DNA of 55,611 nucleotides, counting the filler, from Fonticula-like sp. SCN 57-25 (lineage: Eukaryota), in the NCBI GenBank assembly GCA_001724245.1. It is 2 parts of 2 records of this genome, joined end to end, with 100 filler letters (N's around TTAATTAATTAA, not from the genome) between each part and the next. Parts side by side here need not be neighbours in the genome. Positions count along the whole stretch, not along the records: positions 1 to 28,824 come from MEDX01000103.1; 1 more part is not named here. One strand, 5' to 3'. A program made the position numbers and the translations under genes. Under the pieces are notes generated by a model. That model ran no database searches. It was not told where the DNA came from and saw only the letters and a program-made list of their open reading frames with translations. This document shows, one piece after another, positions 1,862-31,530 of this stretch. Numbering within the stretch: position 1 is the stretch's first letter; each line of letters opens with the position of its first letter.

Positions 1862-4060
1862 CTACTCGCTTTCAGCAAACTTGCGCGCGAGCACCGACGC
1901 GAGCTCCGAGTCCAACCTGCTGATGGTGCCTGCGCTCGCCGCCGCCATCTTCTTTGCATCAATGGGCCTCAGCGTGGCATAACGACTCGCGATATCGACC
2001 GGCGTTGCGGGCGTCGTAGGCGTGGCAGGCGTGACAGGCTTGGTAGACACCTTGCTCCACGTCGGCGTGTCGGGGCTTGAAGCTCCCGATTGGTCGGCAG
2101 CCCTTGGCGAGACGGGCTTGAGCGTGACGATCGGCGCGGCGAGCTTGGCTGCGTCGGTGCGGCCGCCGACCCTTGTCGCAGTGCGGCGCAGCGTCGCAGT
2201 CCACTCGGGCGTCGCCGCTGCCTTTTCGGCGTCGCTCTTCTGCGTCTCCTTCCACTGGCGGATACTTGCCTCGATGTCTGCCCCGGCGTTGGGGTTGTCC
2301 AAGCGCGCGCGGCGCTTCTGCAGACGCTCCGCAAGCTCGACTTGGGCGCCGCCGCGCGTCGTCTCCTTGAACGCGGCAAAGCCCGTAAAGCGCACATTCT
2401 CAATGTCGCTGGCCGCTATAGAGACTTGCTGGTTTTGCGAAGCGGAATTCTTCATAACTTGAGCCGTCTTGGCTTGCAGCAGGCTCTGGAGGGTCGGCGT
2501 CGAGCTCTCCGACGCGGCAGACGAGCCAGCCGATTCACCAGTCGCGCTTGACGATGGTGCAGACAAGCTTGCAGAAAGCGCAGGAGTGCTGGCAGGTGCC
2601 GTAAACGAGTTTGCGATGAGTCCCGCTGCCTTTGCTGCTGCGATCTGGGCGTCCATTGCAGGGGTGCGGTATTGCGGGATGAGCGCGGACGGCCGCTCGT
2701 TGAGCTCGGATGCACCAATGTCGGAGAGCAGCGCCAGGGTGTTTGTCCAGGGTGTGTAGAACGAATACGTTTGATACATTTTATCAATGTTGCTCGTAGC
2801 AGCCATGAGCGCGGATGTCTTGCTATAGAGCGCCTCTACGGCATCCTTTCCGCGCTTGAGCTGGTACGCGTGAGCGACCGTCGCAGGAGTGTCGCGCCGC
2901 GAGCCATCGGCTGCAGAGACGACCTCATTGGCCGCGAGGAGTCGCTCGCCCTTGGAAATGTCGTCGAGCGCATCAATAAACATATACTGCTTGACGTTGA
3001 CGTATGCATTGAGCAGCGTCTTGGCAACGAGAACGCGCGCCGCCTCGCCGACGACGCCCATGTTGAGCTCGGCATCCGTGCGCGGCGCCCCAGTAGGTGG
3101 AGAAGCAGAGGTGCGCGCGAGAGTCAACGACGGAACGGATGACTCGTCGGTCGATCCGTCGGGAGAGGTCAGCCGCGCGCGGACTGCGACGACGTTGCTC
3201 GCGCTCTCGGGGCTGGCCAGCGCAGGTAGCGTGAGCGGAATGAGGATGTTGCGCTGACGCTCCTCCTCGGCATCCTCAATTGTGATATTTACCACGCTCG
3301 CAGATACGCGCTCGATCTGCTCGCCGTTGCCGACGTGGATGTCGCCAATCACGACGCCGTCCGGCACCGAGACACGGAAGGTGGCCGAGGGGAGCGACGT
3401 AGGAAGGAACGACTGGGCGAGGACGCTCTCGAGAGACGAAAAGATCGAGTCGAGATCGGGCACCGACATGAAGCGACCACGAGGAGCAGTGCTCACAAGG
3501 TACTGTAGGAGCCCCTGGTCGTGACAATCGGTGAACCCGAGCGCCACGAGATTCGGGCGCCACTTTGACACCCGCGAGCACCAAGAAGGGAAGGCGCGAA
3601 CAAGCTCCTTGGGCTGCATGGTGTGGCCATCGGTCATAAGGATCACGGTAGGGCGACGCGCGGGCGAAGAAAGCTCTACTTGAGAAAAGGCAATCTCGAG
3701 GCCAGCACCGATATTGGTGCCGAACGTGGATACGAAAGAGCCAGAAGCACTCCTCCACGTAGACTGCTCCGACGTGAGCGAATACTGCAGTTTGGCAGTT
3801 TCACAAAACGTGATCAAAGAGACGCGATCGAGGTTCGGGCGAATGCAGCGCTCGACAAGAAAGTCGTAAGTTTTGGCAACGCGGTCGATGGGCTCTCCCT
3901 CCATCGACGTCGAGACGTCGATGACGAGAATAATGTCGACGCCCGAGGGATCGGCAAGCTCGCCGTTGCGGAACGAGACCATCGCGTTGGTTTCCACGGG
4001 GACATCATAAGGAGCAGAGCGATGCTCGAGGAGCGCAGACCAGGCCACCTTGCCGGACAT
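1862..4060 (-). CDS. von Willebrand factor A (vWA) domain protein with a low-complexity C-terminal tail
   Basis: DIILVIDVSTSM (MIDAS DxSxS), GTNIGAGL, VILMTDG, LGFTDCHD. Single 732-aa ORF with a Ser/Pro/Thr-rich tail. Confidence 0.85.
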   Translation of the reverse strand: MSGKVAWSALLEHRSAPYDVPVETNAMVSFRNGELADPSGVDIILVIDVSTSMEGEPIDRVAKTYDFLVERCIRPNLDRVSLITFCETAKLQYSLTSEQSTWRSASGSFVSTFGTNIGAGLEIAFSQVELSSPARRPTVILMTDGHTMQPKELVRAFPSWCSRVSKWRPNLVALGFTDCHDQGLLQYLVSTAPRGRFMSVPDLDSIFSSLESVLAQSFLPTSLPSATFRVSVPDGVVIGDIHVGNGEQIERVSASVVNITIEDAEEERQRNILIPLTLPALASPESASNVVAVRARLTSPDGSTDESSVPSLTLARTSASPPTGAPRTDAELNMGVVGEAARVLVAKTLLNAYVNVKQYMFIDALDDISKGERLLAANEVVSAADGSRRDTPATVAHAYQLKRGKDAVEALYSKTSALMAATSNIDKMYQTYSFYTPWTNTLALLSDIGASELNERPSALIPQYRTPAMDAQIAAAKAAGLIANSFTAPASTPALSASLSAPSSSATGESAGSSAASESSTPTLQSLLQAKTAQVMKNSASQNQQVSIAASDIENVRFTGFAAFKETTRGGAQVELAERLQKRRARLDNPNAGADIEASIRQWKETQKSDAEKAAATPEWTATLRRTATRVGGRTDAAKLAAPIVTLKPVSPRAADQSGASSPDTPTWSKVSTKPVTPATPTTPATPVDIASRYATLRPIDAKKMAAASAGTISRLDSELASVLARKFAESE

Positions 4061-16341: not shown

Positions 16342-17066
16342 TCGTGTTTCCTAATTGCCATGTCATCTTGCGGCAAATCGGGCTCTTTGTTTGCTGAGGT
16401 TTTAATTCAAGGCACATTCAGGGCGAATTGGTACAAATATGGAGCTCGTCTAGTTATTCTGGATGTTTTCGAGTGCCACGTCACCATGCGATAAATCGGG
16501 ATTTTGGCTCGCCGAGTGCCCAATTCAAGAGCAAAGTGAGTGTAGTATAGGGCTTATCTATTTCTGCCTGTTTTCTGGTTGTCGCGCCAACTTGCAGCGA
16601 CAGTGACCAATGCTGTGTGTTTTATTTGAGCCTTTTGCGACTTCGTGTACATCATTCTTGTTGTTGTTGTTTTTTATGTTTGAAAGCTGTGAAATAGTAA
16701 ACAAATGCCCAACTCCCGTAACTGTCCGCGAGTGGAACACCCTGCGTTCAACTGCAGCAAGCGTTGCATAATTGTCTTTATCTAGGTCGTCGTGATGCTG
16801 TCGGGCAGGCACTACAAGCCCAAAAAGGAGATTTTCATTCCGAATTTGGAGTCGGGGCTGCCTAAAGAGGAGATAGCGCAACTCTCGATCTCCTTTTCCC
16901 GCCAAAACAAACCGACCAAAACGGACCGAAACGGACGCTGACCGACACCATTCCACCGGTTCACGAACAGGCGTCTCCTGCCGCGCCGCAGGCGATCCTG
17001 CAGCCTCTCCCTTGTCCTTTTCTCCGCCGCGCCTCTGGTTCGCCGTCGATTAAATAGGGATTGGCC

Positions 17067-20000
17067 ATGGCCAACTCCTCGCCTCCGATAGAGAGCTCTG
17101 CTATGGCTCTTTTAAGTGACATGAGCTCGCTGGATCCCTTGCCGGCGGCCATGACAGCGACGCATGACGAGCCGCCGCACAGGAACAAGGACGCGTCCTC
17201 CGAGTCCACCACGGGCCTTCTTGCCGACACGAGCGCCAACTTTACGGACAGCGACAGCGACGCCGTTGTGCCCTCCGCCGCTACCAACGGAAGCGCGATC
17301 GACGGCGATTCTTCCGATGACGACTCGTCCGACGGCGACTCTTCCGACGTTGAATCTGTGGCCGTCGTGCCTGATGCCGCGCCAACGATCGAGTTAAACG
17401 ACTTTGCCGCGTCGCCCGCCTCCAATTCCAAAGAAGCCGCGCCGGCGACTGCCATTTCACCTTCTCGCACTCCCTCTGATTCGTCCGCTGGCGCTTCAGA
17501 TTCGCGTGATTCCTCATCTGACGCCAACGGCTCCTCCAAGCTGAGCCGCCGCCAGCGCCTTCGCCAGCTCCAATACGAGTACCGCAACTACATTAGCCAG
17601 TCCGCGCGCGAAGTTCGCCGCAACAAGATGCAGTTTGCGCTCGGCTGCACTTCCATCTTTCTCGTTGTTGTGATCGTGTCCGTGTCGATCTCGACGCTTC
17701 AGTACTCGCCCGTCCTCTTCCTCGGCCTCGCCGAGAGCCAGTCCGGCGAGATTGACCTTTCCATCAGCGCGACAAGCCGCACTGGCTTTTCCGGCCTCAA
17801 CTACACCCTCATCAGCTCTTTCCTCAGCGATCACGGCGACGCCAGCATGCAGTACCACACCCCGCGGCACACCTTTGAAGCGGACGTGTACAGCGGCAAG
17901 GACTGCGCGCCGTGGAACGCGAGCGACCCGACCGACTCGCAGTGGACGTACAAAACGCCGCAGGACGTCGGGCGGCCGGCAGACTACCTCGTGCGCTGCT
18001 CCAACGCGTACAGCGAGTGCCTCAGCTACAACTGCGACTACCCGCAAGCGGGCGTTTTTTACCTCATCGACTCGGAAAAGGAAAAGGAAATCGGTCTCGG
18101 ACGCTCATGGGAATACCCCAAAGTGCCCAAAGTACGCACATTCACTTCTTTATAGGCCAATTTATCTTGGAATTGTGACTAAATATGCGGCTTAGGGGTC
18201 GTGTTATGTGCAGAATAACCTGGCGAGGTCACTTGATGTTGGAGTTGGCGACTATATTTACGTGTCTGTGAAGCTGAATGATGAAGAGGCGGCGTCGTTT
18301 TATATGGTGTCGGCCGGGTACAACTTTACAGTGAGGACGAATTCGACTTATTTGGCAAATATTCCATTGAGGGTTGACGCAATCATTCCATCGACGACCA
18401 ACAAATGGAGCGCGTCAGTGAGAAATGGTACGAAAGGGGAAAGGGGAGAATAGTATAATTATGAGCATGATGAAATGATGCTGTATTGATGATGAAATGG
18501 TGTTGAAATGGTGTGAAAATGATATGGAAATGTTGATGAAATGGTCTGTTTTATACTGTACTATATTGTATAGTACTGTATTGTACTGTATTGAATTGTA
18601 TCATATTGCATTGTATTGTATTGTATCATACTGTATTGTATTGTATTGTATTGTATTGTATTGTATTGTATTGTATTGTATTGTATTGTATTGTATTGTA
18701 TTGTATTGTATTGTATTCATTGTATTCCATAGTCTATTCCTTACTATATTCCATTTTCCATTCCATTTACTAACACTCTTTCCCTTTCCCAGTTGTTATG
18801 ATTGAACTTGAAGATTTTCCTTCCCTCCTCTCCCTCGCCCTCTCCTCCTCCGACCCCCAAATCCCCCCCCCCTTCCGCTCCGCCATCGCCTCCGTCCCCC
18901 CCCACTCCGGCGTCAGCACCGTCCTCCTCAACCTCCCCTCCCCCCGCTTCGACTTTTACCGCTCCACCACCTTTGCCACCAACGCGCGCTCAGTCGTCGC
19001 GTGGTCTTCCGACACACTCTTCCTTCTCGGATTCGACCAAGTTGACGCAATTCTTCCGTGCCTTCGCGAGCTGCAAGCAACGAATTTCGCGTCGGCTTTC
19101 CTTGGACTTATGCTAAATATTGTCATTATTTTGCTGACACTTATATCGACGCTGCTCATCTATTCGCTGCTGATGATTAGCGTGGAGGCGAGGACGTTTG
19201 AGTTGGGTATTTATAGAATGGTCGGGATGAGGAGGGCGGGGCTGCTGCAGATGATTTTGGTGCATGCGTGGATGTTTGCGGTGCCGGCGTGGGTGTTGGG
19301 GTTGGTGATCGCGCAGATCGTGTTTGCGGTGGTTGCGAATGCACTCAGTAATCTCTCTAGTCTCAGTGTACGAAGGGGGATTTGGCCACGTGGTGGATTT
19401 ATGCATGATTGGTCGTGTATGGATATCTGATCTGACACTGTTCATGCACTGTTGGTATGGTTGATGTTGTGTATTAGATATATTTTTGTTTGATTGTTTA
19501 TGTGTTTTATGTTACTGTTTGTGTATTAGATATATTTTATTTTACTGTTTATGTCCTTTTTTTCACTGTTTTTCATTGATTTTTATTGATTTTCATTGAT
19601 TTTCATTGATTTTTAATGCTATCTCGACCCTCACATTCATATCTATTTCAGGTTGCTCCTCTGCTGAGCTCGCTTGGAGTTGAAATTGCGACACTTCTCG
19701 GTCTTGTCATTCCCCTTATTGCCGCCATTCTCCCTATCAAGGTACGCCTTTCACTTATACTTTCTCTATATTAACCCTTTCACTTTAGGCTGCATTGGGA
19801 AAGAACTTGCATGATGCACTTGACTCGAGCAGATCAAAAACAAAGGCCGTCGAAATTACAGTTTCGCGCGCGACGGTCGACCAGCACTCTTTTATCTTTT
19901 TCACTGTACGTCCAGAAAAAATATGATGGGGATCACGTGGGGATCAGGTGGGGATCGTGATCGTGATGTCGTGATGTCGTGATGGCGATGCTGATGCTGA

Positions 20001-22315
20001 TCTGATCGTGTGCTAACCAATCATCTAGACGGGTATTCTTTTGACGGCGTTTGGGTTTATGATTTACTACTTTTTGCCGCTTGCGCTCCTTGGCGGTGAC
20101 GTCACTTCGCTGTTCAACATCTTCCTCGTCATCATCATGTCGATGATGATCGGCCTCGTGATCCTCGCGCTCAACTTCCAGGTACAATGCTGACTGTGCA
20201 TTTTTGTGATTTTTGCTGACTGTGCAATCCAGCCCCTGCTCGAGCAGCTGCTGATCAAGGTGTGGTTCCTCGTGTTTTTCTTTGAGAACCCGTCGATCCC
20301 GGGCATCGTCGGCAAGAACCTTGTGGCTCACCGTCGCCGGTACGCTTTTTGTCATTTTTTGGCTATTTTTGGCTACTTTTTTTCTTTTTTGTGCAAAAAC
20401 ATCTTGGCCATCGTGCTCATCTTGCTCATCTTGCGCGTGATCAGGAACCGCAAGACGGCGATCACGTACTCTACCGCACTCGCCTTTATCATTTTCCTCG
20501 CTGTTGCCGTCGATGTCGAGCTGCGCACTGTCCAGTACGACGCGTACATCAGCACGGGCTCTGCGCTGCGCGTCACCGCGTGGGACTTTGACAGCGACGG
20601 CCTGCCAAAGGGGATCGCGTCCATGGCCGTGCTCGAGGAGTGGGCCGAGGCGCACCCGTACGTGCAAGACTTTAGCTGGGTGTCGTACCATTTGCGCGAC
20701 ACGTGGCCGCTCAGAACTGCCACGGAAATCGAAACACTCGGCCAGTACGCCCTTTGACGATATGAAAAATGGCCATTTCTGACACTTTTTGCCACTTTTT
20801 CGCCACTTTTTTCCTTTTTTAGGTACACAAGCAGCAGCCAAAACATATATGGAGCGACGCCAAACGTCGTCGACACGCTTTTGAGCATGTTTTACAGCCC
20901 AGGCGAGGTGGATGACGCGTCGCCATATTCGATTTCCGAGCAGCTGTACACGCCAAAGGGGTCGCGCGGGTCACTTTTAGGGGCGAATTTTATTGCAGAT
21001 ATGGACATTACGTCATTGGAATCGCGTTTTCAGGTGACTGTGACGAGTAATACGAGGCCGCTGCAGCGCGTCACGAGGACAATTATGTCGCCAATTTCGC
21101 TCGTCAGGGGAATGTACGTGGCGGGAAAGTGGGAAAGCGGATAATGATTGATTGATGAATGATTATGATATATGATGATATATGATGATTTTTATGGCAT
21201 TGTGGTGTAATTTTGATGTCTTTTGATTGTCAGTTTGATATTGTTCGTGATTTTTATGTCACTTTTTTGTCCATTTTTGGTCATTTTCGGTCATTTTAGT
21301 CATTTTCGGTCATTTTTCGGTCACTTTTCGCCATTTTTCGCCATTTTTACTGACTATTTTGCAGTGCTTTGTTCAGTATGTCGTACTTTAGCGACAGCAG
21401 CAATGACATGGTCGTTTCACTTCCGACACTCGTCGACCTCTCTGAAGGCCAGTTCATGTCCGTCATGGACCTTCCCATGCGCTTCATGCTCCTCAAGACG
21501 CCCGACGGTGCGTACTGAACGCTCATTGGCTGCTTTACTGATGGCCACGTGGATGAAGGGATTACTGATGATGAGATGGATGAGCTGATTCGGTCGATGC
21601 CGTCGCTCAGTGTCGGGTTTGTTGATGATGCGCGCGATGACTTTTCGGCGTTTGTTGGCCAATCAGAGACGATTAAATGGGTTTTCCAGGTGCGAATTTG
21701 GGAATAAATTGTTATTTTTGGTTGAATTATGGTTTAATTGTGGTCGAATTGTATTGAATTGTATTGAATTGTGTTTGAATTGTGGTTGGATTGTGCAAAA
21801 TTGTGTTGATTTTTGGTTGATTTTTTAAGGTTTTGGTCAATTTTAGTGTTGAATTTGTGTCATTTTCGTTCTTTTTTGTCACTTTTTGTCACTTTTCTTT
21901 TCTTTTTCTTACTTTCGCTAACTTTCTTCTCCAGATTGTGACGATCTTTACAATGATCATTGCCTTCTTCTCGCTCAACACCTCCATGTACACCAACATT
22001 GTCGAGCAGTCCAAGGAGATCGGCATTCTTCGCGCGCTCGGCCTCACGCGCGGCGCCATCTTCCGCATCTACACGTACGAGGCGCTCTTCCTCGTGCTCT
22101 CGTCGGCCTTCCTCGGATCCTGCATCGGCCTGCTCATCGGCTGGTCCATCTCGGCCCAGCGCGCGCTCTTCACGCAGGTGCCGATCTCGTTTTCGTACCC
22201 GTGGGACCTCGTCATTACAGTGTCTATTGTCGCCATCATTTGCGCGCTCATCTCGACCGCAACGCCCGTCGCGCGGCTGGTCATGCGGCCCGTCATCGGC
22301 ACACTCAGATCCTAA
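17067..22315 (+). CDS. FtsX/MacB/LolE-type ABC permease family membrane protein, more than 10 exons
   Basis: Two FtsX-like halves: IYSLLMISVEARTFELGIYRMVGM and MYTNIVEQSKEIGILRALGL..IY..EA. REVRRNK and AHRRRNRKT motifs precede the first TM of each half. Exon boundaries only partly resolved. Confidence 0.85.
18550..18725. repeat. (TGTAT)n pentanucleotide microsatellite in an intron
   Basis: About 17 perfect units at 18632-18716 with degenerate flanks. Confidence 0.95.
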
Positions 22316-23930: not shown

Positions 23931-26268
23931 ATGAACTCAAACAGCAGCAGTAGTAGCAGGCTTCCGTCGCCTCCCCTCACGGCGCCCACTGCGGGCATTC
24001 TCCCAGCGCCGACCCCCATTGTGATCCCCACGACACAGCATGCCGGCAGCTTTGACGCATCGGCGGCATCGGCATCTACCTCGCCGCGATCGCCGTCGGG
24101 GTCCGGGCACCTCGGCCAGCGCCGCGGGCCCATGCAGGCCATTCGCCAGCTGAGGCGCGCGGCCGGCGGCGCGGCAGCCGACTTTGGATCAACGGGATCC
24201 CTCGGCGGCGGGAGCAGCGTCCCGTTCCACATCGACAGGCTCAGATCCCTCTTTGGCGAGATCGAGAACGAGGTGCGCGCTCATTGAATACTTAATTATG
24301 GTGTTTCTTATGCGTTTTCCTATTTGTTTTGATATACAGGTAACGTCAATACTTGAAGAAAACCAAGCGCGTACGTCCCGTTTTATGATCTCCTCCCTTC
24401 TTTGTTTTGTTTACTGACCCGGATCCCCCATGCAGTGAGGCGCAGACTGGAGCGCTACGAACCAAACGTCGACTTTGACTACGCCGACGAGGACGTCTTT
24501 TACGAGCGCAGCGGCAAGGCGACGCCTCCTGTCGGCGCAGTGCGGGTGCGCGATCCCCATTTCCACCATCACCCGATGCCTGATGCTGATGCTGATGATG
24601 GTGATCAGAGGGAAAGGATATCGAGGAATACGTGGACGCCGACGCGCAAGTACCTCGGGCACCGCGACTGCGTGTGGGAGGTGACGATGGCGCAGGCGAG
24701 GCACGCGTGCTTGGGGACGGCGTCGGCGGACCGCACGGCGCGGCTGTGGAGCCCAAACTATCAGAGCAATGTTTACAACTATGCGGCGCACAAGGGATCA
24801 GGTGCGAGGAAAAGTGAAGAAAATTGTGTGGTTTTGAAGAGGGAAATTTATTGTTTTGCTGTTGTTTTAGTGTTGTTTTGGTGGTTTTTGCGTCATTTTT
24901 GGTGTTGCCGAAACTATGATGGTGTATTTTATGAGTTAATCTTGTCTCCTTTATGGTATCTTCTATGGTAACTTTTATGATATATTTTTTGATATATTTT
25001 ATGATGATTTTTGTGTTGTTTTCGTGACAATTGTGCATCAAATTGTGTTGTTTTTGTGTCACTTTTTTTTCCTTTTTCCTCTATTTCCACTCTTTATCGC
25101 TCTCTTTTCTCACATACTTCTTCCCATCAGTAAATTCGATTCGGTTCCACGCGACCGATTCCCTTGTCTGCACCGCTTCTGGCGACCGCACCGTCCACGT
25201 GTGGCGCATTCCCGCCGTCGTCACAAAAATCCTCGGCCAGGCGAGCGCCGTCCCCGCCGAAGCGCAGCGCCGCAACAGCATCTCGGGCGCGACGATCCCC
25301 GGCATCGACGATCTTGCCAATCTCACCGGCAAAGGTACATAAAATCCACCCATGAATCCGGTGCTGACTTTTTGGTAGTGCCGCTGGTGCGCCTGAGTGG
25401 GCATGGCGATGCGGTGAGCGCCGCCGACTGGTACGCGGGCGGAACGCGCATCGTGTCGGCTGGCTGGGACAAGGCGGTGCACCTATGGGACGCGCAGGCG
25501 AGCGGGTCTCCTTTGTCGATCTTGCCAGGTACGCGCGGGATCTCTTTTTTTGACGTTTTCCCGCCAAATTCGTGCTGATCACGCCGATCGCACAGGGCAT
25601 CAGGGCCGCGTGACGGGTGTCGCGGTGCACGCGACGGACGACGTGCTTGCGACGTCGAGCGCCGACGGGACAGTGCGGCTGTGGGACCCGCGAAAGCCGA
25701 CGGGCGTCGTCGACAGCGTCAAGGTCCACGCCGCGTACGTCTCGCAAACTGCAAACTGTGTGGCTTATGGTATCTTTTATAGAAATGTGACGTCGGTGGT
25801 GTTTTCGCGGACCGACTCTTATATTGTGACAGCGTCGGACGACCGCTACGTAAAGGTGTGGAACCTAAAGTTTATGCGGTCGCCCATCAGCATCATTCGG
25901 AACGATGCGGGTGTCAACAGGTGCGCGAGAGGGAAAAGTGGGCGCAAATTTTGCGCAAAGTGGGAAAATGGGTGTGAAAGTGTGTGGAAAGTGAGCAAAA
26001 GTGGCCTTTTTTCCTTTTCTTTCATTCTCATGCCGTGATTAGGATCGCCATCTCGCCGGTTGGGAATCTGATTGCGGCGCCGCTCGATGACGGCGGCATC
26101 CGCATTTTCGATGTGAGCGGCGGGCGCGCCATGAAGATCCCGCGCTCGCTTCAAGGGCACCGCAAGGGCGTCACCGGGACGGCGTGGGCGCACGATGACG
26201 CGGCCATCTTTTCGTCCGGGTACGCCGAGGACGTCTTCAAGTGGGAGCCGAGCTGGGGCGCGGAATAG
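23931..26268 (+). CDS. WDR37: WD40-repeat protein WDR37-like, multi-exon
   Basis: RLRSLFGEIENE coiled-coil motif; YLGHRDCVWEV, LGTASADRTARLW, YAAHKGS|VNSIRFH, TASGDRTVHVW follow the WDR37 repeat order. Confidence 0.85.
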
Positions 26269-26359
26269 ATCATAATAGGAAAGAAACGTGCCAGAAATGT
26301 AATATTATACGCTGCAACTAAATAGAAAGGAACAATTAATGAGCATAAAGAGTCATTTT

Positions 26360-26570
26360 CTAGTTCTTTCTGCTCTTCTGCTCGACATTCTTGAACCAGT
26401 TGGCGAGCTCGTTAAAGTGATCCTTGATGTTTGGAAGCTGCGAAACAAAAAGGTTAACTACCTCAAAAAGACGCAATAAAAGCATATACCTCGTAGTTTT
26501 GAGCAAGAAAGGCGCCCGCTACCGTGCCGATGGTCGCACCAGCGCTAAAAAACGTCCACCGATGGTGCAT
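26360..26570 (-). CDS. STMP1: Short transmembrane mitochondrial protein 1 (STMP1/DUF4535)-like microprotein (exons 26570-26490, 26437-26360)
   Basis: Spliced product MHHRWTFFSAGATIGTVAGAFLAQNYE|LPNIKDHFNELANWFKNVEQKSRKN carries the GxxxGxxxAQNYxxPN signature. Confidence 0.8.
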
Positions 26571-26600
26571 TGTCCCTGATGATCGCTGACAGAAGCGGAT

Positions 26601-26640
26601 TATAACCGACCAAAACCGACCAAAACCGACTATAACCAAC
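26601..26640. repeat. Four tandem 10-bp units: tataaccgac, caaaaccgac, caaaaccgac, tataaccaac
   Basis: Directly visible. A similar array lies at 16908-16946. Confidence 0.8.
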
Positions 26641-26833
26641 CCGATCGCGCGGGAAATCATCCGATGAAACGTAACCGTCCATGACTTTTGATTTAATGTG
26701 ACCTGACGAATAAAAATATGTTTCAAACAAAGAACAACGTACGTATAAAGCGGTGTCCATTTTGTTCTGTTCGTCATTCAACAACGCAGGACGCCGACCA
26801 ACGACTGCTCCACGGTACCAACGTCGCGTATCG

Positions 26834-27529
26834 ATGCGTGCCAGGGCAGAGCACTACGGCCCCCACCTGATCACCGCCGCCCATGCGCGTCGCACACTCG
26901 ATATCTCAAGGACCACGCTGCGACGCTGGTGCGACCTCGGTCGCGTGCGGTTCACCGTCGCCGATGGTAACCGGCGTTACCACGTCGCCGACCTTGAGCG
27001 TGAGCTCGGTGCCAGCGTCCCCGCGTCCACCGCCCCGGAAAAGGCGCGCGTCATCTACGCCCGCGTCTCGTCCACCCACCAACGCGCCGACCTCGACCGC
27101 CAAGTCGCCGACCTCCAGCGCGCCTACCCACAGCACGAGCTCGTCACCGACGTCGCCTCCGGGATCAACTGGCGCCGCCCCGGCCTGCGTGCCCTTCTGG
27201 AACGCGTCCTCGCAGGCACTGTCGCTGAGATTGTGGTGGCCCACCGCGACCGGCTCTGCCGCTTCGCCTTTGACCTCGTCGAGTTCGTCTGCTCCCAGTC
27301 CGCGTGCCGCATCGTGGTTCACGGTAGCCACGACACCGAGACCAGCGAGCTCGCCGACGACCTCCTCGCCATCGTCACCGTGTTTGTCGCGCGCAATAAC
27401 GGAGAGCGTTCGGCGCACAACCGGCGCCAGCGACGCGAACACGAAGCCGCAGCACGCGTCCAAGCGCCAGAAGACCGACAAGCCTCCACCCACGCGAGTG
27501 CGCAAGATACGACTCTTCCCGTCGCCTGA
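26834..27529 (+). CDS. tnpA: IS607-family serine recombinase/transposase TnpA
   Basis: N-terminal MerR-like HTH (ARRTLDISRTTLRRW...GNRRY); catalytic IYARVSS (Ser at 27068); DLDRQV; DVASGINWRRPGL; AHRDRLCRFAFDL; ELADDLLAIVTVF. Confidence 0.95.
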   Translation: MRARAEHYGPHLITAAHARRTLDISRTTLRRWCDLGRVRFTVADGNRRYHVADLERELGASVPASTAPEKARVIYARVSSTHQRADLDRQVADLQRAYPQHELVTDVASGINWRRPGLRALLERVLAGTVAEIVVAHRDRLCRFAFDLVEFVCSQSACRIVVHGSHDTETSELADDLLAIVTVFVARNNGERSAHNRRQRREHEAAARVQAPEDRQASTHASAQDTTLPVA

Positions 27530-28697
27530 CGAGGCCGCGACGCTGCGCCGCTGGGTCGGTACAGCGCGCTGGACGTACAACGCGTGCCTCGCGGCGGTCA
27601 AGGGCGGCACGCCGCGGACGCTCGCTGCGCTGCGCGCTGCATGCCTCAACGCTGATTCACCTTTGCTACAAGCGAACCCGTGGGCCGCTGAGACACCGTA
27701 CGACGTCCGCGACGAGGCGCTACGCGACCTGCTCAAGGCGTACGACAGCACCTTCGCAGCCAAGCGACCCCGCTTTACCATGCGCTTCCGCTCCAAGAAA
27801 GCGGACGCCGAGGCCATCGTCGTCCACGCCAAGCACTGGGTGCACAAGCGCGGTGTCTACGCGTTCCTCGCTCGCATGCGCGCTGCAGAGCCGCTCCCTG
27901 ATGTACTGGGGTACGACGCGCGACTCGTGCGTGAGCGCTACGGCCGCTACTTCCTATGCGTACCACTTCCGGCGCCAGCACCTGTGATCTCGGGCGAGAA
28001 CCAAGCCCGAGCACCACGCGTTGTTGCGCTCGACCCTGGCGTGCGCACGTTCCTCACCGCGTACGATCCCGCGGGCGACGCGCACGAGATCGGTAAGGGC
28101 GACGTCTCGCGTCTACACAGGCTCGCGCACGCCGCTGACGACCTCCAGTCACGCTGGACGCTCATCCGCAATGGTACCGCGTCCATCTTCCCGGTGCCAG
28201 AGCACTACGCGCACTGGTCGCGTGCAGACTACCGCCACCGACTCGTCTACCGGCAGAAGCGCGCTGCCGCTCGGATACGGCGTCGCGTACGCAACCTCGT
28301 CGACGAACTCCACCGCCAGGCGGCACGCTGGCTCGCGCGTGAGCACGACGTCGTCCTGCTCCCTGTCTTTGACACGCAACGGATGGTACGTCGCTCGCCC
28401 GCGCGAAAGCTCAGCAGCAAGTCGGCGCGCGGCCTCGTTACGTGGTCCCACTACCGCTTCCGTACCCACTTGCTCCACAAGGCACGCGAGCTCCAGTGCG
28501 ACGTCGTACTATGCAACGAGGCGTACACGAGCAAGACGTGTGGCGCGTGCGGCCACCTCCATGCTGCGCTCGGAGGAAGCAAGGTGTTCCGCTGCCCGTC
28601 GTGCGGGGCGACAGCGGACCGCGACGTTCACGCCGCGCGCAACATCTTGTTGCGCTACATGAGTACGGGGCCTTCGGCCTCGTACGTTGGGGCTTGA
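26883..28697 (+). CDS. Fanzor2 (eukaryotic TnpB-like) RNA-guided endonuclease; conserved part starts near 27490, true start uncertain
   Basis: RKIRLFP...LRRWVGTARWTYN (HTH_OrfB-like); TPYDVRDEA; RuvC-I VALDPGVRTF (D at 28032); LLPVF in place of the canonical Glu; relocated Glu in CNEAYTSKTC (28518); CGAC..CPSC zinc finger; RuvC-III DRDVHAARNI (D at 28623). Confidence 0.93.
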   Translation: MRVAHSISQGPRCDAGATSVACGSPSPMVTGVTTSPTLSVSSVPASPRPPPRKRRASSTPASRPPTNAPTSTAKSPTSSAPTHSTSSSPTSPPGSTGAAPACVPFWNASSQALSLRLWWPTATGSAASPLTSSSSSAPSPRAASWFTVATTPRPASSPTTSSPSSPCLSRAITESVRRTTGASDANTKPQHASKRQKTDKPPPTRVRKIRLFPSPDEAATLRRWVGTARWTYNACLAAVKGGTPRTLAALRAACLNADSPLLQANPWAAETPYDVRDEALRDLLKAYDSTFAAKRPRFTMRFRSKKADAEAIVVHAKHWVHKRGVYAFLARMRAAEPLPDVLGYDARLVRERYGRYFLCVPLPAPAPVISGENQARAPRVVALDPGVRTFLTAYDPAGDAHEIGKGDVSRLHRLAHAADDLQSRWTLIRNGTASIFPVPEHYAHWSRADYRHRLVYRQKRAAARIRRRVRNLVDELHRQAARWLAREHDVVLLPVFDTQRMVRRSPARKLSSKSARGLVTWSHYRFRTHLLHKARELQCDVVLCNEAYTSKTCGACGHLHAALGGSKVFRCPSCGATADRDVHAARNILLRYMSTGPSASYVGA

Positions 28698-28785
28698 CCC
28701 TTCCGTGCCTGTCGCGAGACAGCATGGTACAGGACTGAACGCTTTGTTCAGTTTTCATTCAAGCGTCCATCAATCAAAAGCTCTT
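28660..28785 (+). ncRNA. Predicted omega-RNA (fRNA) scaffold plus flank-derived guide; 5' boundary uncertain
   Basis: Consecutive hairpins: 28663-28685 (cUUCGg-capable), 28689-28700, 28703-28727 (GCGA tetraloop), 28733-28753. They overlap the Fanzor stop codon and end near the inferred right end. Confidence 0.7.
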
Positions 28786-28824
28786 AAAAGCGACTGGAAA
28801 ACAACTTGAAAGTGCGTTAAAATA

Positions 28825-28923
28825 NNNNNNNNNNNNNNNNNNNNNNNNNNNNNNNNNNNNNNNNNNNNTTAATTAATTAANNNNNNNNNNNNNNNNNNNN
28901 NNNNNNNNNNNNNNNNNNNNNNN
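28825..28923. other. Artificial contig linker / assembly gap
   Basis: N-run, TTAATTAATTAA (stops in all six frames, 28869-28880), N-run. Confidence 0.95.
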
Positions 28924-31530
28924 NGGGCGCAATGGGCCATGAATTCACAGACACTTTCATATGTTTGTCTACGAGCGAAAGTACAGGTGCGTTTGGCTTT
29001 GCTCTATTCATTTCGTGCTAAAAATCGATGCACAGGAGACGCAGCAGCGCGGCGAGGTTGCCTTGCGGCGAGTGCTCTTTTTAGAGGACGGGCGGCAGGA
29101 AATAACGCTTGATGTGACGCTGCCGCCGCGCTTTGGGCGGCACCAGATGGAGGACTTTGAGTACATGCACCTGCCGTGCTCGCGCACCGTCCCCGAGGCA
29201 AACTCGCACATGGAGCTCGTGCGCGTGGACAACAATGCGCTGTGCCTGTGCCTGCAGTGGCTCGACGACTCGTCGACCTCGCGCAACATCAACATCAGCG
29301 TCTTTTTAATATACTCGCGCTGCAAGGTGGACTTTGTCATCCCGATGTCGTCGGCGTCGCCGAGCGCGGTCGCCCTCACACAGGTCTTTTTCACCACGCT
29401 AAGTGCGCTTGTTTGCTTTTCATTTTTTCCGTTGCTCACCGTTTGCGCCAGACCACATGTTGGTAATCTACCTTCCCGGTCACTACCTGCAGCTGCTCGA
29501 CTGCAGCTCGGACCACGACCCGTGCCACAGCTTTTCCGCGCTTGGCCCCGACCGCGTCCCCCCTCTGCCCGGCCAGGACGAGTCGGGCGACAGCGCGGTC
29601 TTCCTCACGCACATTGAATCGATCCCGAACGTGGTGCTCGAAGCCGACTCGCCAGCCTCGGCGATGGCCGTGGGCGGTTTCGGGTTCGCCATGTTTGACA
29701 GCCGGACGGACACGGCCTACAGGTACCGGTTTGACGAAAAGGCGCTGCTGGACATGTTTGTAAAGACGCCGCCGGGGATCGCCCACGTGCAGGCGATGCA
29801 CCTCGCGCTCGCGCACCTGCAGGACCCGCAGCTCGTCCTGCGCATCGTGCGGACGCTGTGCGACACCCAGCCGCGCACCGTCACGGCCGACCTCTTAAAA
29901 GAGTTTTTGATTGGGACGACGTACATGTCGATCCGCAGCCTAAAGACGGACGCCGGCTTCAAGGTCGACGCCGAGTACCTGCGCCTGCTGCCCGTCACGA
30001 CGCTCGCGAGCATCGTGGACGAGCTCGAGGAGCGCCGGCGGCCGGCCGAGCGCGCCACGAGCATGCAGACTGTCGGCGAGGAGCAGTACCGCCCCTTCAA
30101 CATTCGCGCCGGCCAGCGCTTTTCCTTTGAGCTCATGCTCGGGCCGCCGTCGCTCCTGTCAAAGGCCGTCCACGCGCAGCCGTCTGGGCTCGCTTCGTCA
30201 TTCCTGGGAAGCCCGCGCTGGCGCAACCGGTTTGACAACGTGCTCTCGCGCGTGTTTGGCAGCCCGAGCCCCGACCGTACGCGCTTTTCTTCTTCTTTGT
30301 CTCTTTGTACTGACATTGTCTTAGCGTCGACGACGCGGAAGCGCTCCGGGAACGACGACGTTGACGACGACAACCGCCTTCGCCAGCGGTTCCTCGACGT
30401 CCTCACGCACTTTACGTCGACGTTTGTCTCCAAGGACGTGCGGCCGCGCTGCGCGGGCTACTCGGCCGAGTATGCGCGCTGCCAGTTTGCGCAGGCCGCG
30501 CAGCTCTGGGGCTGCATCGACGACACAGAGGGGTGCGCACCTACATGTGCAGCTTGGCCGTTTGCTGAATTGAACCTGTTAGGTTGCCGAATATCCACCA
30601 GCTTTTGAGGGAGCACCGGCAGGGCGCCTCCATGCAGCAGTATCTCCCGATGTTCCAGCTGCTCGAGAGCATGTACTGCGCCATCGAGGAGCTCTACTAC
30701 CCGTTCCCCGACTCGTACCACAGCAAGTTTGCGGTGCTGGGGTTCCACGTTCTTCCGCGACAGTGCGCCGCCCCTAGCTTGCATTTCGTATCACTAAACT
30801 CTTCCTGCAGTGTGTATATTCAGTATGTTGAGCGCGGTGTGTTCCGCATGACCGAGGCCGTCATCGAGCACATTGTCGTCCAGGTGCTCGGCGAGGCCAC
30901 GACCGAGGCCGACCAGCACTTCAAGTGGCTGCTTCTCTCGCGCGTTCGGTCTAGGGTACGCCTTTTCTCGCCCCTTTTTCTTTTGTTTTCGCGCATGCAC
31001 TGACATTTTTGTTGCAGAAAATCTTTGAGAAAATGCTTCGCAAGATTCCCGACGCCGCGACCAAGGTGGTCGAGCTTGCCATCGCGTCCCACCTCGGCAA
31101 CTGTACGACACACTTTATTGCGCTCGCGCGTCTCACGCTGTGCACGTAGCGTTTGATGTGGAGGACGAGGACGACGGCGAGCCGGAGTCGGCGGACCTTA
31201 CCGATGACCAGTTGGTACGCGACGCGGACATCCGCATGTCTTTGGCTGACGCAGTGTGGACAGGACGCGGCAACAAAGGAGCAGGTCGATCTGGACGAGC
31301 CCAGCTTTATCCCTCTCAGTGTCTTTTTGCAGCACCTGCGCAACAAGGGCATCCGCGCGTCCGAGCTCACGCACGCGTCGCGGACGCTGGCGCACAGCTT
31401 TGAGCCGTCGGCGTCGTTTGAGGCGCTGCGGGCCGGCAGCGACCCTGGCATGCTGCGCAACGGGTCGAGCCCATCGTCCGAGCTGCTGGCCGCGCATAGA
31501 GCGACCGCGCCGCGAGCGGGTGCCGTGTAG
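28924..31530 (+). CDS. GSAP: Gamma-secretase-activating protein (GSAP/pigeon)-like, 5'-truncated by the gap, multi-exon
   Basis: [16 protein letters not shown]...PCH and the C-terminal GSAP-16K-like [23 protein letters not shown]...LGFHVLP...QYVERGVF. Confidence 0.75.

Follow-up and report, generated by a model that had tools for sequence, protein, structure and literature searches.

What do the ends of an IS607-type transposon in a Fonticula-like eukaryote predict about the target-adjacent motif (TAM), the guide and the empty target site of the Fanzor2 nuclease that it encodes? The element is located in a stretch of 55,611 nucleotides (nt), the window, whose positions 1 to 28,824 come from contig MEDX01000103.1 of Fonticula-like sp. 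SCN 57-25 (GCA_001724245.1). Fanzor2 proteins are candidate compact genome editors; since the transposon ends usually serve to derive their TAM and guide, an error of 67-155 nt in the left end yields a wrong empty site and possibly a wrong TAM. In the original prediction, made from the sequence alone, the ends had been placed at 26752/26753 and 28765/28766 (the slash marks a junction), and a TAM of about 5'-(AA)GCG had been derived. Here, the right end was retained and the left end was moved outwards on the basis of a second copy. The reading favoured, with a probability of roughly 0.5, is that positions 26598-28765 (~2.17 kb) constitute an apparently intact eukaryotic IS607-type transposon (IS607EU) with TnpA and Fanzor2.

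The element encodes an IS607-type TnpA and a Fanzor2 protein

Two overlapping genes were annotated on the plus strand (Table 1). In TnpA, the Pfam domain Resolvase was detected (E 1.4e-19, residues 100-233 of the 258-aa frame), and HTH_17 was found N-terminal to it at residues 40-83 (E 9.5e-05), with 23 bits, i.e., under the 27-bit cut-off. The nearest solved structures are catalytic domains of IS607-family TnpA proteins (3lhf, 3ilx, 6dgb and 6dgc), and YARVSS lines up with YARVSS of 3lhf, the catalytic serine motif. The tnpB-type gene follows on the same strand, 3' of tnpA, and its product matched Cas12f1-like_TNB (E 3.9e-20) and HTH_OrfB_IS605 (E 7.1e-06). With Pfam domains and nearest solved structures in agreement, the assignment to an IS607-type element carrying tnpA and a gene for a TnpB-like protein (Fanzor2) was supported. 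The lack of terminal inverted repeats was likewise upheld: none was present among the 25 longest of 84 inverted pairs or in a 9-mer scan of both candidate ends.

The nearest solved relative of the Fanzor2 protein is the mimivirus L79 Fanzor2 (9b0l, E 2e-21), with ALDPG aligned, and the Glu of CNEAYTSKTC aligns to the Glu of NEYLTTKTC in this protein (ApmFz2). D179 (within ALDPG), E341 and D374-R375-D376, numbered from 27498, were invariant across 37 aligned sequences. E341 lies six residues before the zinc finger, and ALDPG, NEAYTSKTC and DRD make up the Fanzor2 signature; in the cited parts of two studies, Fanzor2 is distinguished by DPG and by a relocated Glu, likewise six residues ahead of the zinc finger (PMC10711439, PMC13565253). 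Among 8000 scored candidates, 1326 proteins matched Fanzor2 at E ≤ 0.001, the named matches being Lipomyces proteins and EukProt transcripts with ~45-50% identity.

The conserved Fanzor2 core begins near 27498, and the 205 codons upstream overlap tnpA in the +1 frame. Whether the openness of this frame points to overprinting was tested: the frame also remained stop-free over tnpA (26883-27497) in 1941 of 5000 synonymous tnpA shuffles, and thus the open frame in this GC-rich copy is no evidence of selection.

A second copy and giant-virus relatives place the right end at a CG core

Nineteen sequencing runs are listed, all as contigs and none on record as RNA. Contigs of runs X1, X2, X4 and X5 were aligned to the window at 85% likeness. 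Besides the window copy (copy A), which is covered over 25800-27256 by a Logan contig from X1 with 0 differences, a second copy (copy B) was obtained. Copy B is ~88-93% identical to copy A, its depth in X1 is ~10-15 as compared to 14-19, and its flanks are unrelated to those of copy A on both sides. Elsewhere in the window, no second copy of the element was found. A third sequence, L001, was the only relative among 79 pattern matches when metagenome contigs were searched for the Fanzor2 protein by patterns; the same search gave 0 related sequences among 7 pattern matches in viral contigs and 0 among 36 in genome contigs. L001 (1-2421), a relative in decay, contains in-frame stops and has lost internal segments; it adjoins a cysteine-rich minus-strand open reading frame (ORF).

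The copy B contigs from X2 (190 nt) and X4 (885 nt) match the window to 28766 and then read (A/G)CCTCGTCATATG... The right end reads ...TTCAAGCG/T in copies A and B, without GG, i.e., the canonical IS607 GG terminus is absent. L001 aligns gaplessly to the same right end, where it has TAGCAT as compared to AAGCGT here, which is consistent with CpG decay. T28766 is present in all three copies.

Giant-virus relatives served as a comparative control. An alignment-based scan yielded 80 viral loci with 22-38% identity, and families were delimited by all-against-all megablast with unrelated flanks (Table 1). Since family V1 showed GG at both ends in five contexts, the method recovers the canonical pattern. 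The ends of V2 and V5 indicate that the clade also has cores other than GG. For V3, the boundary fell inside the true end because of an indel near the terminus; thus, alignment boundaries can underestimate a left end, as at 26686 (see below).

The right ends of L128 and L130 (family V5) were delimited independently of the window element. The 25 nt ending at 28765 were 16/25 and 14/25 identical to them, as compared to 9/25 and 7/25 in the register ending at 28766. In L128/L130 and in the element alike, TCAAG directly precedes the 2-nt core, and CTTGA lies upstream, 65-73 nt from the end. A regular-expression scan of the 80 viral loci for CTTGA...TCAAG gave 26 matches, of which only those in L127, L128 and L130 resemble real right ends. 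L128/L130 and L113/L115 are Fanzor2 relatives at 29-31% identity with delimited ends lacking GG, like the element. Unlike it, L128/L130 are viral contigs with a single 516-aa ORF and no tnpA; L113/L115 are also viral contigs, and each of these two families offers only 2-3 insertion contexts. The homology to L128/L130 points to a right junction at 28765/28766 with CG as core. Thus, with copy B identity lost at 28766 in two runs and the giant-virus register fitting 28765, the predicted right junction held.

With the right end set by copy B and the giant-virus register, the predicted guide was correct to within one base. From TnpB/Fanzor biology (PMC10711439, PMC10432273, in the parts cited) and the right end, we infer that it would start at 28766 if the core is CG and at 28767 if T28766 belongs to scaffold or core. 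The rule that the guide equals the right flank, on which the original prediction relied, is established but needs refining in one respect: the first base after an IS607 right end can be RNA scaffold and not guide, and for ISXfa1 the right-flanking nucleotide is counted with core or scaffold (cited passages of PMC10711439).

Table 1. Features of the element with their window positions, and giant-virus families used for comparison.
Feature	Position or loci	Strand	Evidence and remarks
Favoured left junction AAGCG/G	26593..26598	+	AAGCG of the right end recurs; counterpart in L001
Array of AACCGACCAA (10-bp unit, 3.8 tandem copies); candidate TnpA-binding repeats in subterminal position	26604..26641	+	TRF; k-mer scan
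CCGT; internal motif if the element starts at 26598, left junction if it starts at 26679	26675..26678	+	Same offset in A, B and L001, by eye
Conserved non-coding block shared with copy B	26686..26779	+	At least 85% identity; 94-nt side of the joint in X1 and X4 contigs
TATAAA, possible TATA box	26744..26749	+	85 nt 5' of the tnpA ATG; within the block shared with copy B
Direct repeat, left copy	26761..26781	+	Local score 14; copy B block ends at 26779
tnpA, IS607-type serine recombinase, 231 aa	26834..27529	+	Pfam Resolvase; YARVSS catalytic motif
Fanzor2 (TnpB-like) frame, 604 codons from ATG 26883	26883..28697	+	Domains, motifs, solved relative
Predicted omega/right-end RNA (reRNA) scaffold	28560..28765	+	Fold, copy B changes; overlaps the 3' end of the Fanzor2 ORF
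Direct repeat, right copy	28743..28762	+	Pairs with 26761-26781
Right junction AAGCG/T, core CG at 28764-65	28761..28766	+	Copy B ends, L001, register test
Predicted guide-encoding flank	28766..28785	+	TnpB/Fanzor biology and right end
Contig joint	28825..28924	.	N44, TTAATTAATTAA, N44; non-biological
Family V1	L077, L078, L096/097/099, L103, L105		5 contexts; begins GG, ends GG (canonical)
Family V2	L113/L114/L115		3 right-end contexts; ...AACCG at the right end, next base variable; ...GCG at the end of the left flanks
Family V3	L076/L079		2 contexts; megablast boundary 10-26 nt inside the true GG end
Family V5	L128/L130		2 contexts; begin TG, end TG

Alignment with copy B moves the left end outwards

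At the left, copy B contigs from X1 and X4 are continuous over 26686-26779 and run straight through the predicted junction at 26752/26753. Identity of other copies well beyond the predicted ends had been named beforehand as the refutation of these ends, and copy B identity extends to at least 26686. The alignment thus places the true left end at least 67 nt left of 26753. The right half of the predicted empty allele stood, and its left half, TATAAAGCG/TCCATC..., fell, since copy B crosses the left junction it contains. Because copy B runs continuously through 26752/26753, TATAAA at 26744-49 is internal to the element and may be the TATA box of tnpA. The left contig of copy B (X1, 624 nt; also X4) comprises 26686-26779, 69 unalignable letters, 26849-27057, 29 letters replacing 27058-27149, and 27150-27256. 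Before 26686, it shows unlike sequence ending ...GGGTGCCGTTGGGGGA, seen for 30 nt.

The strings on which the original prediction was built are all in place (TATAAAGCG at 26744-26752, followed by GTGTCCATTTTG, and TCCATCAATCAAAAGCTC from 28766), and AAGCG is present at 26748-52 and 28761-65. As a match, however, AAGCG does not exceed chance: 26400-28824 contains 10 copies, two of them at 26593 and 28788, the whole window contains 73, and the coincidence is at chance level. A 16-base probe across the right junction was scored along the left region and compared with 2000 shuffles. The junction 26752/26753 matched 9/16, and sites 26671 and 26548 matched 11/16; at least 8/16 was reached by 2000, at least 9 by 1937 and at least 11 by 252 of the 2000 shuffles. 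Thus, single-copy junction matches are at chance level and cannot by themselves fix the left end. The ~20-bp imperfect direct repeat is real, with 17 identities and one 1-base gap, and beats chance: when the right-end region was shuffled 1000 times, 6 shuffles attained its local score.

The position favoured here, at about even odds, is a left junction at 26597/26598, with crossover at CG 26596-97. In L001, AAGCG/T is found at 194-198/199, 228 nt 5' of the tnpA ATG, as compared to 237 nt in copy A. To the right of this motif, 26615-26663 of copy A resembles 224-270 of L001 with a score that 7 of 2000 shuffles attain; among comparison windows, 5 of 5302 from elsewhere in the analysed stretch and 115 of 19500 from unrelated loci attain it as well. 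To the left of AAGCG, no similarity between copy A and L001 was detected (673/2000 and 1441/2000 shuffles reached the score). After the core, 9/15 bases from 26598 match the left end of L128/L130, as compared to 1-3/15 for the other candidates. The AACCGACCAA array follows within the element so delimited, and related AACCG motifs occur at 235 and 266 of L001.

Several observations weigh against 26598. The 5-mer AAGCG occurs about once per 240 nt here, and L001 is decayed, its right end being TAGCAT and not AAGCGT. When 26450-26830 was scanned with the viral probe without bias, 26598 tied with four other positions at 9/15, and 1843 of 2000 shuffles equalled this. Local alignments of the left region of copy A with L128 and L130 were non-significant (613/2000 and 1265/2000 shuffles), and the local alignment of the right end was marginal with L128 (53/2000) and null with L130 (1156/2000). 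Since copy B is seen left of 26686 for 30 nt only, it does not fix the real left end. The AACCGACCAA array could be host DNA, given the 10-12-bp tandem repeats of the host; placing the left end by this helically phased array alone was tried and is weakened, since similar repeats fill the host intergenic DNA. Lastly, the invariant T28766 and the shared offset of CCGT in A, B and L001 fit a junction after CCGT better.

It is less probable, though still to be reckoned with, that the left end lies elsewhere at or left of 26686, i.e., exactly at 26686, within 26598-26675 or left of 26593 (e.g., ACGTCCA at 26553); the exact TAM would then be fixed only as ending in the core. Copy B gives 26686 as an upper bound only, all single-copy junction matches are at chance level, and 26548 equals 26671 against the right-junction probe. 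The absence of A-L001 similarity left of 26593 speaks against the outermost of these positions. An end exactly at 26686 was rejected: it offers no dinucleotide common with the right junction in either copy and therefore violates the serine-recombinase rule of an identical core at both junctions, as given in the cited parts of PMC6188088 and PMC10690162. At 26597/26598, at 26678/26679 and at 26752/26753, the crossover dinucleotide is CG at both junctions. By the core rule, the last bases of the TAM would be CG whatever the left end.

A left junction after CCGT, at 26678/26679, is unlikely. It would place the crossover within CGT, which also ends the right-end terminus GCGT, and the element start at 26679, and it predicts a TAM of about 5'-CCG(T), a guide from 28767 and an empty site in which 26669-26678 (ACGTAACCGT) is joined to 28767 onward. 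By eye, 7 nt separate CGT from the conserved block in both copies, A and B, and the right-end block of each terminates in CGT; the 7 nt after CGT, however, are only 1/7 identical between A and B, despite ~90% elsewhere. In L001, AACCGT ends 155 nt before the tnpA ATG, as compared to 156 nt in A, and the top local alignment of A and L001 between CCGT and ATG is on the same diagonal (offset 81 vs. 81). Yet the A-L001 similarity extends upstream of CCGT (7/2000 shuffles, 5/5302 windows), and 5 more columns identical in A, B and L001 are seen by eye in the 19 positions before it. CGTCCAT is the longest exact match (7 nt) of the left region to the right-junction probe, but 346 of 2000 shuffles reach at least 7. 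The invariance of T28766 in three copies and a precedent for a CCG TAM in NlovFz2 (PMC10432273, as cited in part) would suit this junction, whereas only 2/15 bases after its core match the left end of L128/L130.

Least of all would one keep 26752/26753 by taking 26686-26752 as a repeated host target or a co-duplicated flank: AAGCG at both junctions, the direct repeat beginning 8 nt inside and the 81 nt to the tnpA ATG (nearest to the 45-67 nt of viral L077 and L113) speak for it, but copy B is continuous there and, on its right, loses identity precisely at the right end, a duplication that took along at least 67 nt of flank on the left and 0-1 nt on the right is unparsimonious, the junction score of 9/16 is equalled by 1937/2000 shuffles, and only 3/15 bases match the viral left end.

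No empty-site joint or right-to-left circle joint is listed in the contigs of X1, X2, X4 and X5, and since contigs drop rare forms, they are uninformative on excision. A protein search with the minus-strand ORF crossing the left end, aimed at the flanks of other copies, gave nothing that scored.

A structured RNA is predicted at the right end

The fold of 28560-28766 has a free energy of -95.7 kcal/mol (z -3.70), and 0 of 200 shuffles were as stable. Hairpins are predicted at 28663-85, 28703-27 and 28732-54. In the hairpin at 28703-27, all copy B changes keep pairing (G-U to A-U, C-G to U-G), including a compensatory double change from U-A to C-G at 28710/28721; a copy B change at 28736 would break a pair unless the partner changed too. 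CTTGA at 28693-97, in a hairpin loop, is complementary to TCAAG at 28759-63, with near-identical spacing in L128 and L130, and a pseudoknot between the two is possible in the modelled fold. Such a pseudoknot is reported as needed by IS607 TnpB and Fanzor2 RNAs in the cited passages of PMC10711439 and PMC13565253. Across the whole window, no Rfam family reached its gathering score, and at the right end only a chance match to mir-431 (E 7.9) was obtained.

Loci matching a conserved 18-mer of the predicted omega-RNA (59 in genome contigs, 2 in viral contigs) were dismissed as chance, since 0/61 matched the element by blastn, and the right-end 20-mer gave 0 matches in viral contigs. At L107 (~4034-4050), the right end is directly followed by CTTAGAGC, and the same sequence follows GA at the left end of L110 (3333-3345). 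This arrangement could be tandem or circle-junction-like, or due to chance.

Copy B and the N-terminal extension of Fanzor2

In copy B, 29 letters of unrelated sequence stand in place of the 92 nt at 27058-27149, so that 63 nt are lost on balance and the frame is kept; the replacement deletes the TnpA catalytic YARVSS region. The Fanzor2 protein of copy B corresponds to P0002 (92% identical), whose Ala-His insertion fits a 6-nt insertion behind 27977. Between 28463 and 28666, 15 of the 20 listed differences between copies B and A are at third codon positions, with 139 further differences beyond those listed. This pattern indicates that the copy B Fanzor2 evolved under constraint, and copy B looks, from its sequence, like a non-autonomous element with a maintained nuclease.

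ATG 26883, the putative Fanzor2 start codon, follows the tnpA AUG (26834) at a distance of 49 nt and is the second AUG. It may be speculated that two proteins are made from one mRNA through leaky scanning. In the N-terminal extension, the motif PFWNASSQALSLRLWWPT aligns with the N-termini of P0007, P0012 and P0065. It also occurs in the AT-rich giant-virus loci L077 (3204-3532) and L113 (3219-3550), where the Fanzor2 ORF overlaps tnpA by 329-332 nt.

Contig context and host

The window is a binned-assembly concatenation of two contigs, joined by an artificial linker (Table 1). Therefore, genes beyond 28925 are not necessarily adjacent to the element in the genome, and its right flank comprises only 59 bases before the contig end. 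On its own contig, the element is positioned downstream of a WD40 gene, and the other eukaryotic genes encode PCIF1_WW, ArfGap+BAR+PH, NFACT (two ORFs) and the succinate dehydrogenase (SDH) flavoprotein. The top named SDHA relatives are from Fonticula alba (81%) and chytrids or Mucoromycota (79-81%). These protein similarities indicate that the host is an uncultured fungus-side (Holomycota-like) eukaryote.

The DNA is GC-rich (0.61-0.69). Intergenic DNA of the host is dense in tandem repeats with 10-12-bp units (108 TRF rows), e.g., at 16909-16936, 19560-19613, 21250-21348 and 24851-24891. Some of these units are T-rich and similar to the end repeats of the element, e.g., TTTTCATTGA x5.4.

Discussion

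The element is an ordinary member of the known IS607EU/Fanzor2 type with a non-canonical CG core; elements of this kind are described in the cited parts of PMC3627910, PMC3673617 and PMC13565253. By analogy to the known IS607 mechanism, TnpA would excise the element as a double-stranded circle, and re-insertion would proceed by crossover at a core of 2 bp, here CG, that the two junctions and the target have in common. A structured 3' RNA scaffold would run to the right end of the element, and Fanzor2, guided by read-through into the right flank, would cut the emptied site next to the TAM, so that repair of the cut site copies the element back. With the left end at 26598, the empty site would consist of 26588-26597 (ending GACAGAAGCG) joined to 28766 onward (TCCATCAATC...).

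The TAM of the original prediction, (AA)GCG, may be right for a different reason, since a junction at 26597/26598 would give about 5'-AAGCG. TAMs given for IS607 and Fanzor2 systems in the cited parts of the literature are GGG, TGGG, NGGG, CCG and TAG (PMC10711439, PMC10690162, PMC10530073, PMC10432273). Tentatively, we propose from the sequence comparison a eukaryotic IS607 lineage that crosses at CG instead of GG and whose Fanzor2 co-evolved to a longer TAM that is not a G-run (about 5'-AAGCG).

Among known systems, mimivirus elements of the ISvMimi type (ApmFNuc/ApmFz2, L79, 9b0l) have a serine-recombinase tnpA followed by Fanzor2, as observed here, and share DPG, the relocated Glu and a guide RNA, predicted here, that extends past the right end (PMC10530073, PMC13565253, both as cited in part). 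The match of L79 to the Fanzor2 described here is mainly in the C-terminal RuvC/zinc-ribbon region. In contrast to the mimivirus element, which starts with GGG and has the TAM NGGG (per the excerpt cited from PMC10530073), the right end here is GCG, lacking GG, in GC-rich DNA of a cellular eukaryote.

Bacterial IS607, IS1535, ISXfa1 and CboIStron elements combine, as here, an N-terminal helix-turn-helix and a C-terminal serine recombinase, and lack terminal inverted repeats. They also have subterminal repeats and a tnpB with a guide RNA at the right end, to which candidate repeats, a tnpB-type gene and a predicted RNA correspond here, and the mechanism expected from the cited parts of PMC6188088, PMC10690162 and PMC10711439 is a circular double-stranded DNA with crossover at identical dinucleotides. 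The bacterial IS607 elements characterised in such sources recombine at GG and have the TAMs GGG/TGGG, whereas the element described here ends in CG. Also unlike bacterial IS607, it has a long left non-coding region (~237 nt if it starts at 26598) with TATAAA, and its Fanzor2 frame overlaps nearly all of tnpA. The third system, NlovFz2 of Naegleria lovaniensis, is likened by its published description: this Fanzor2 is encoded by a cellular eukaryote, its measured TAM, 5'-CCG, contains CG, and its N-terminal extension is disordered (PMC10432273, parts cited).

A short k-mer shared within a single copy cannot fix the ends of an IS607 element; a second copy or a relative is needed. With this locus, an IS607EU that is apparently intact and autonomous becomes known from a cellular eukaryote of the fungal side. 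If the proposed CG lineage is real, it would represent a TAM specificity so far undescribed for Fanzor2, and the IS607 core dinucleotide would drift (GG, CG, TG) across eukaryotic and giant-virus lineages. The sequence evidence suggests that cores other than GG are used for recombination in this clade as well, which, if confirmed, would widen the range of sites addressable by these elements and their nucleases.

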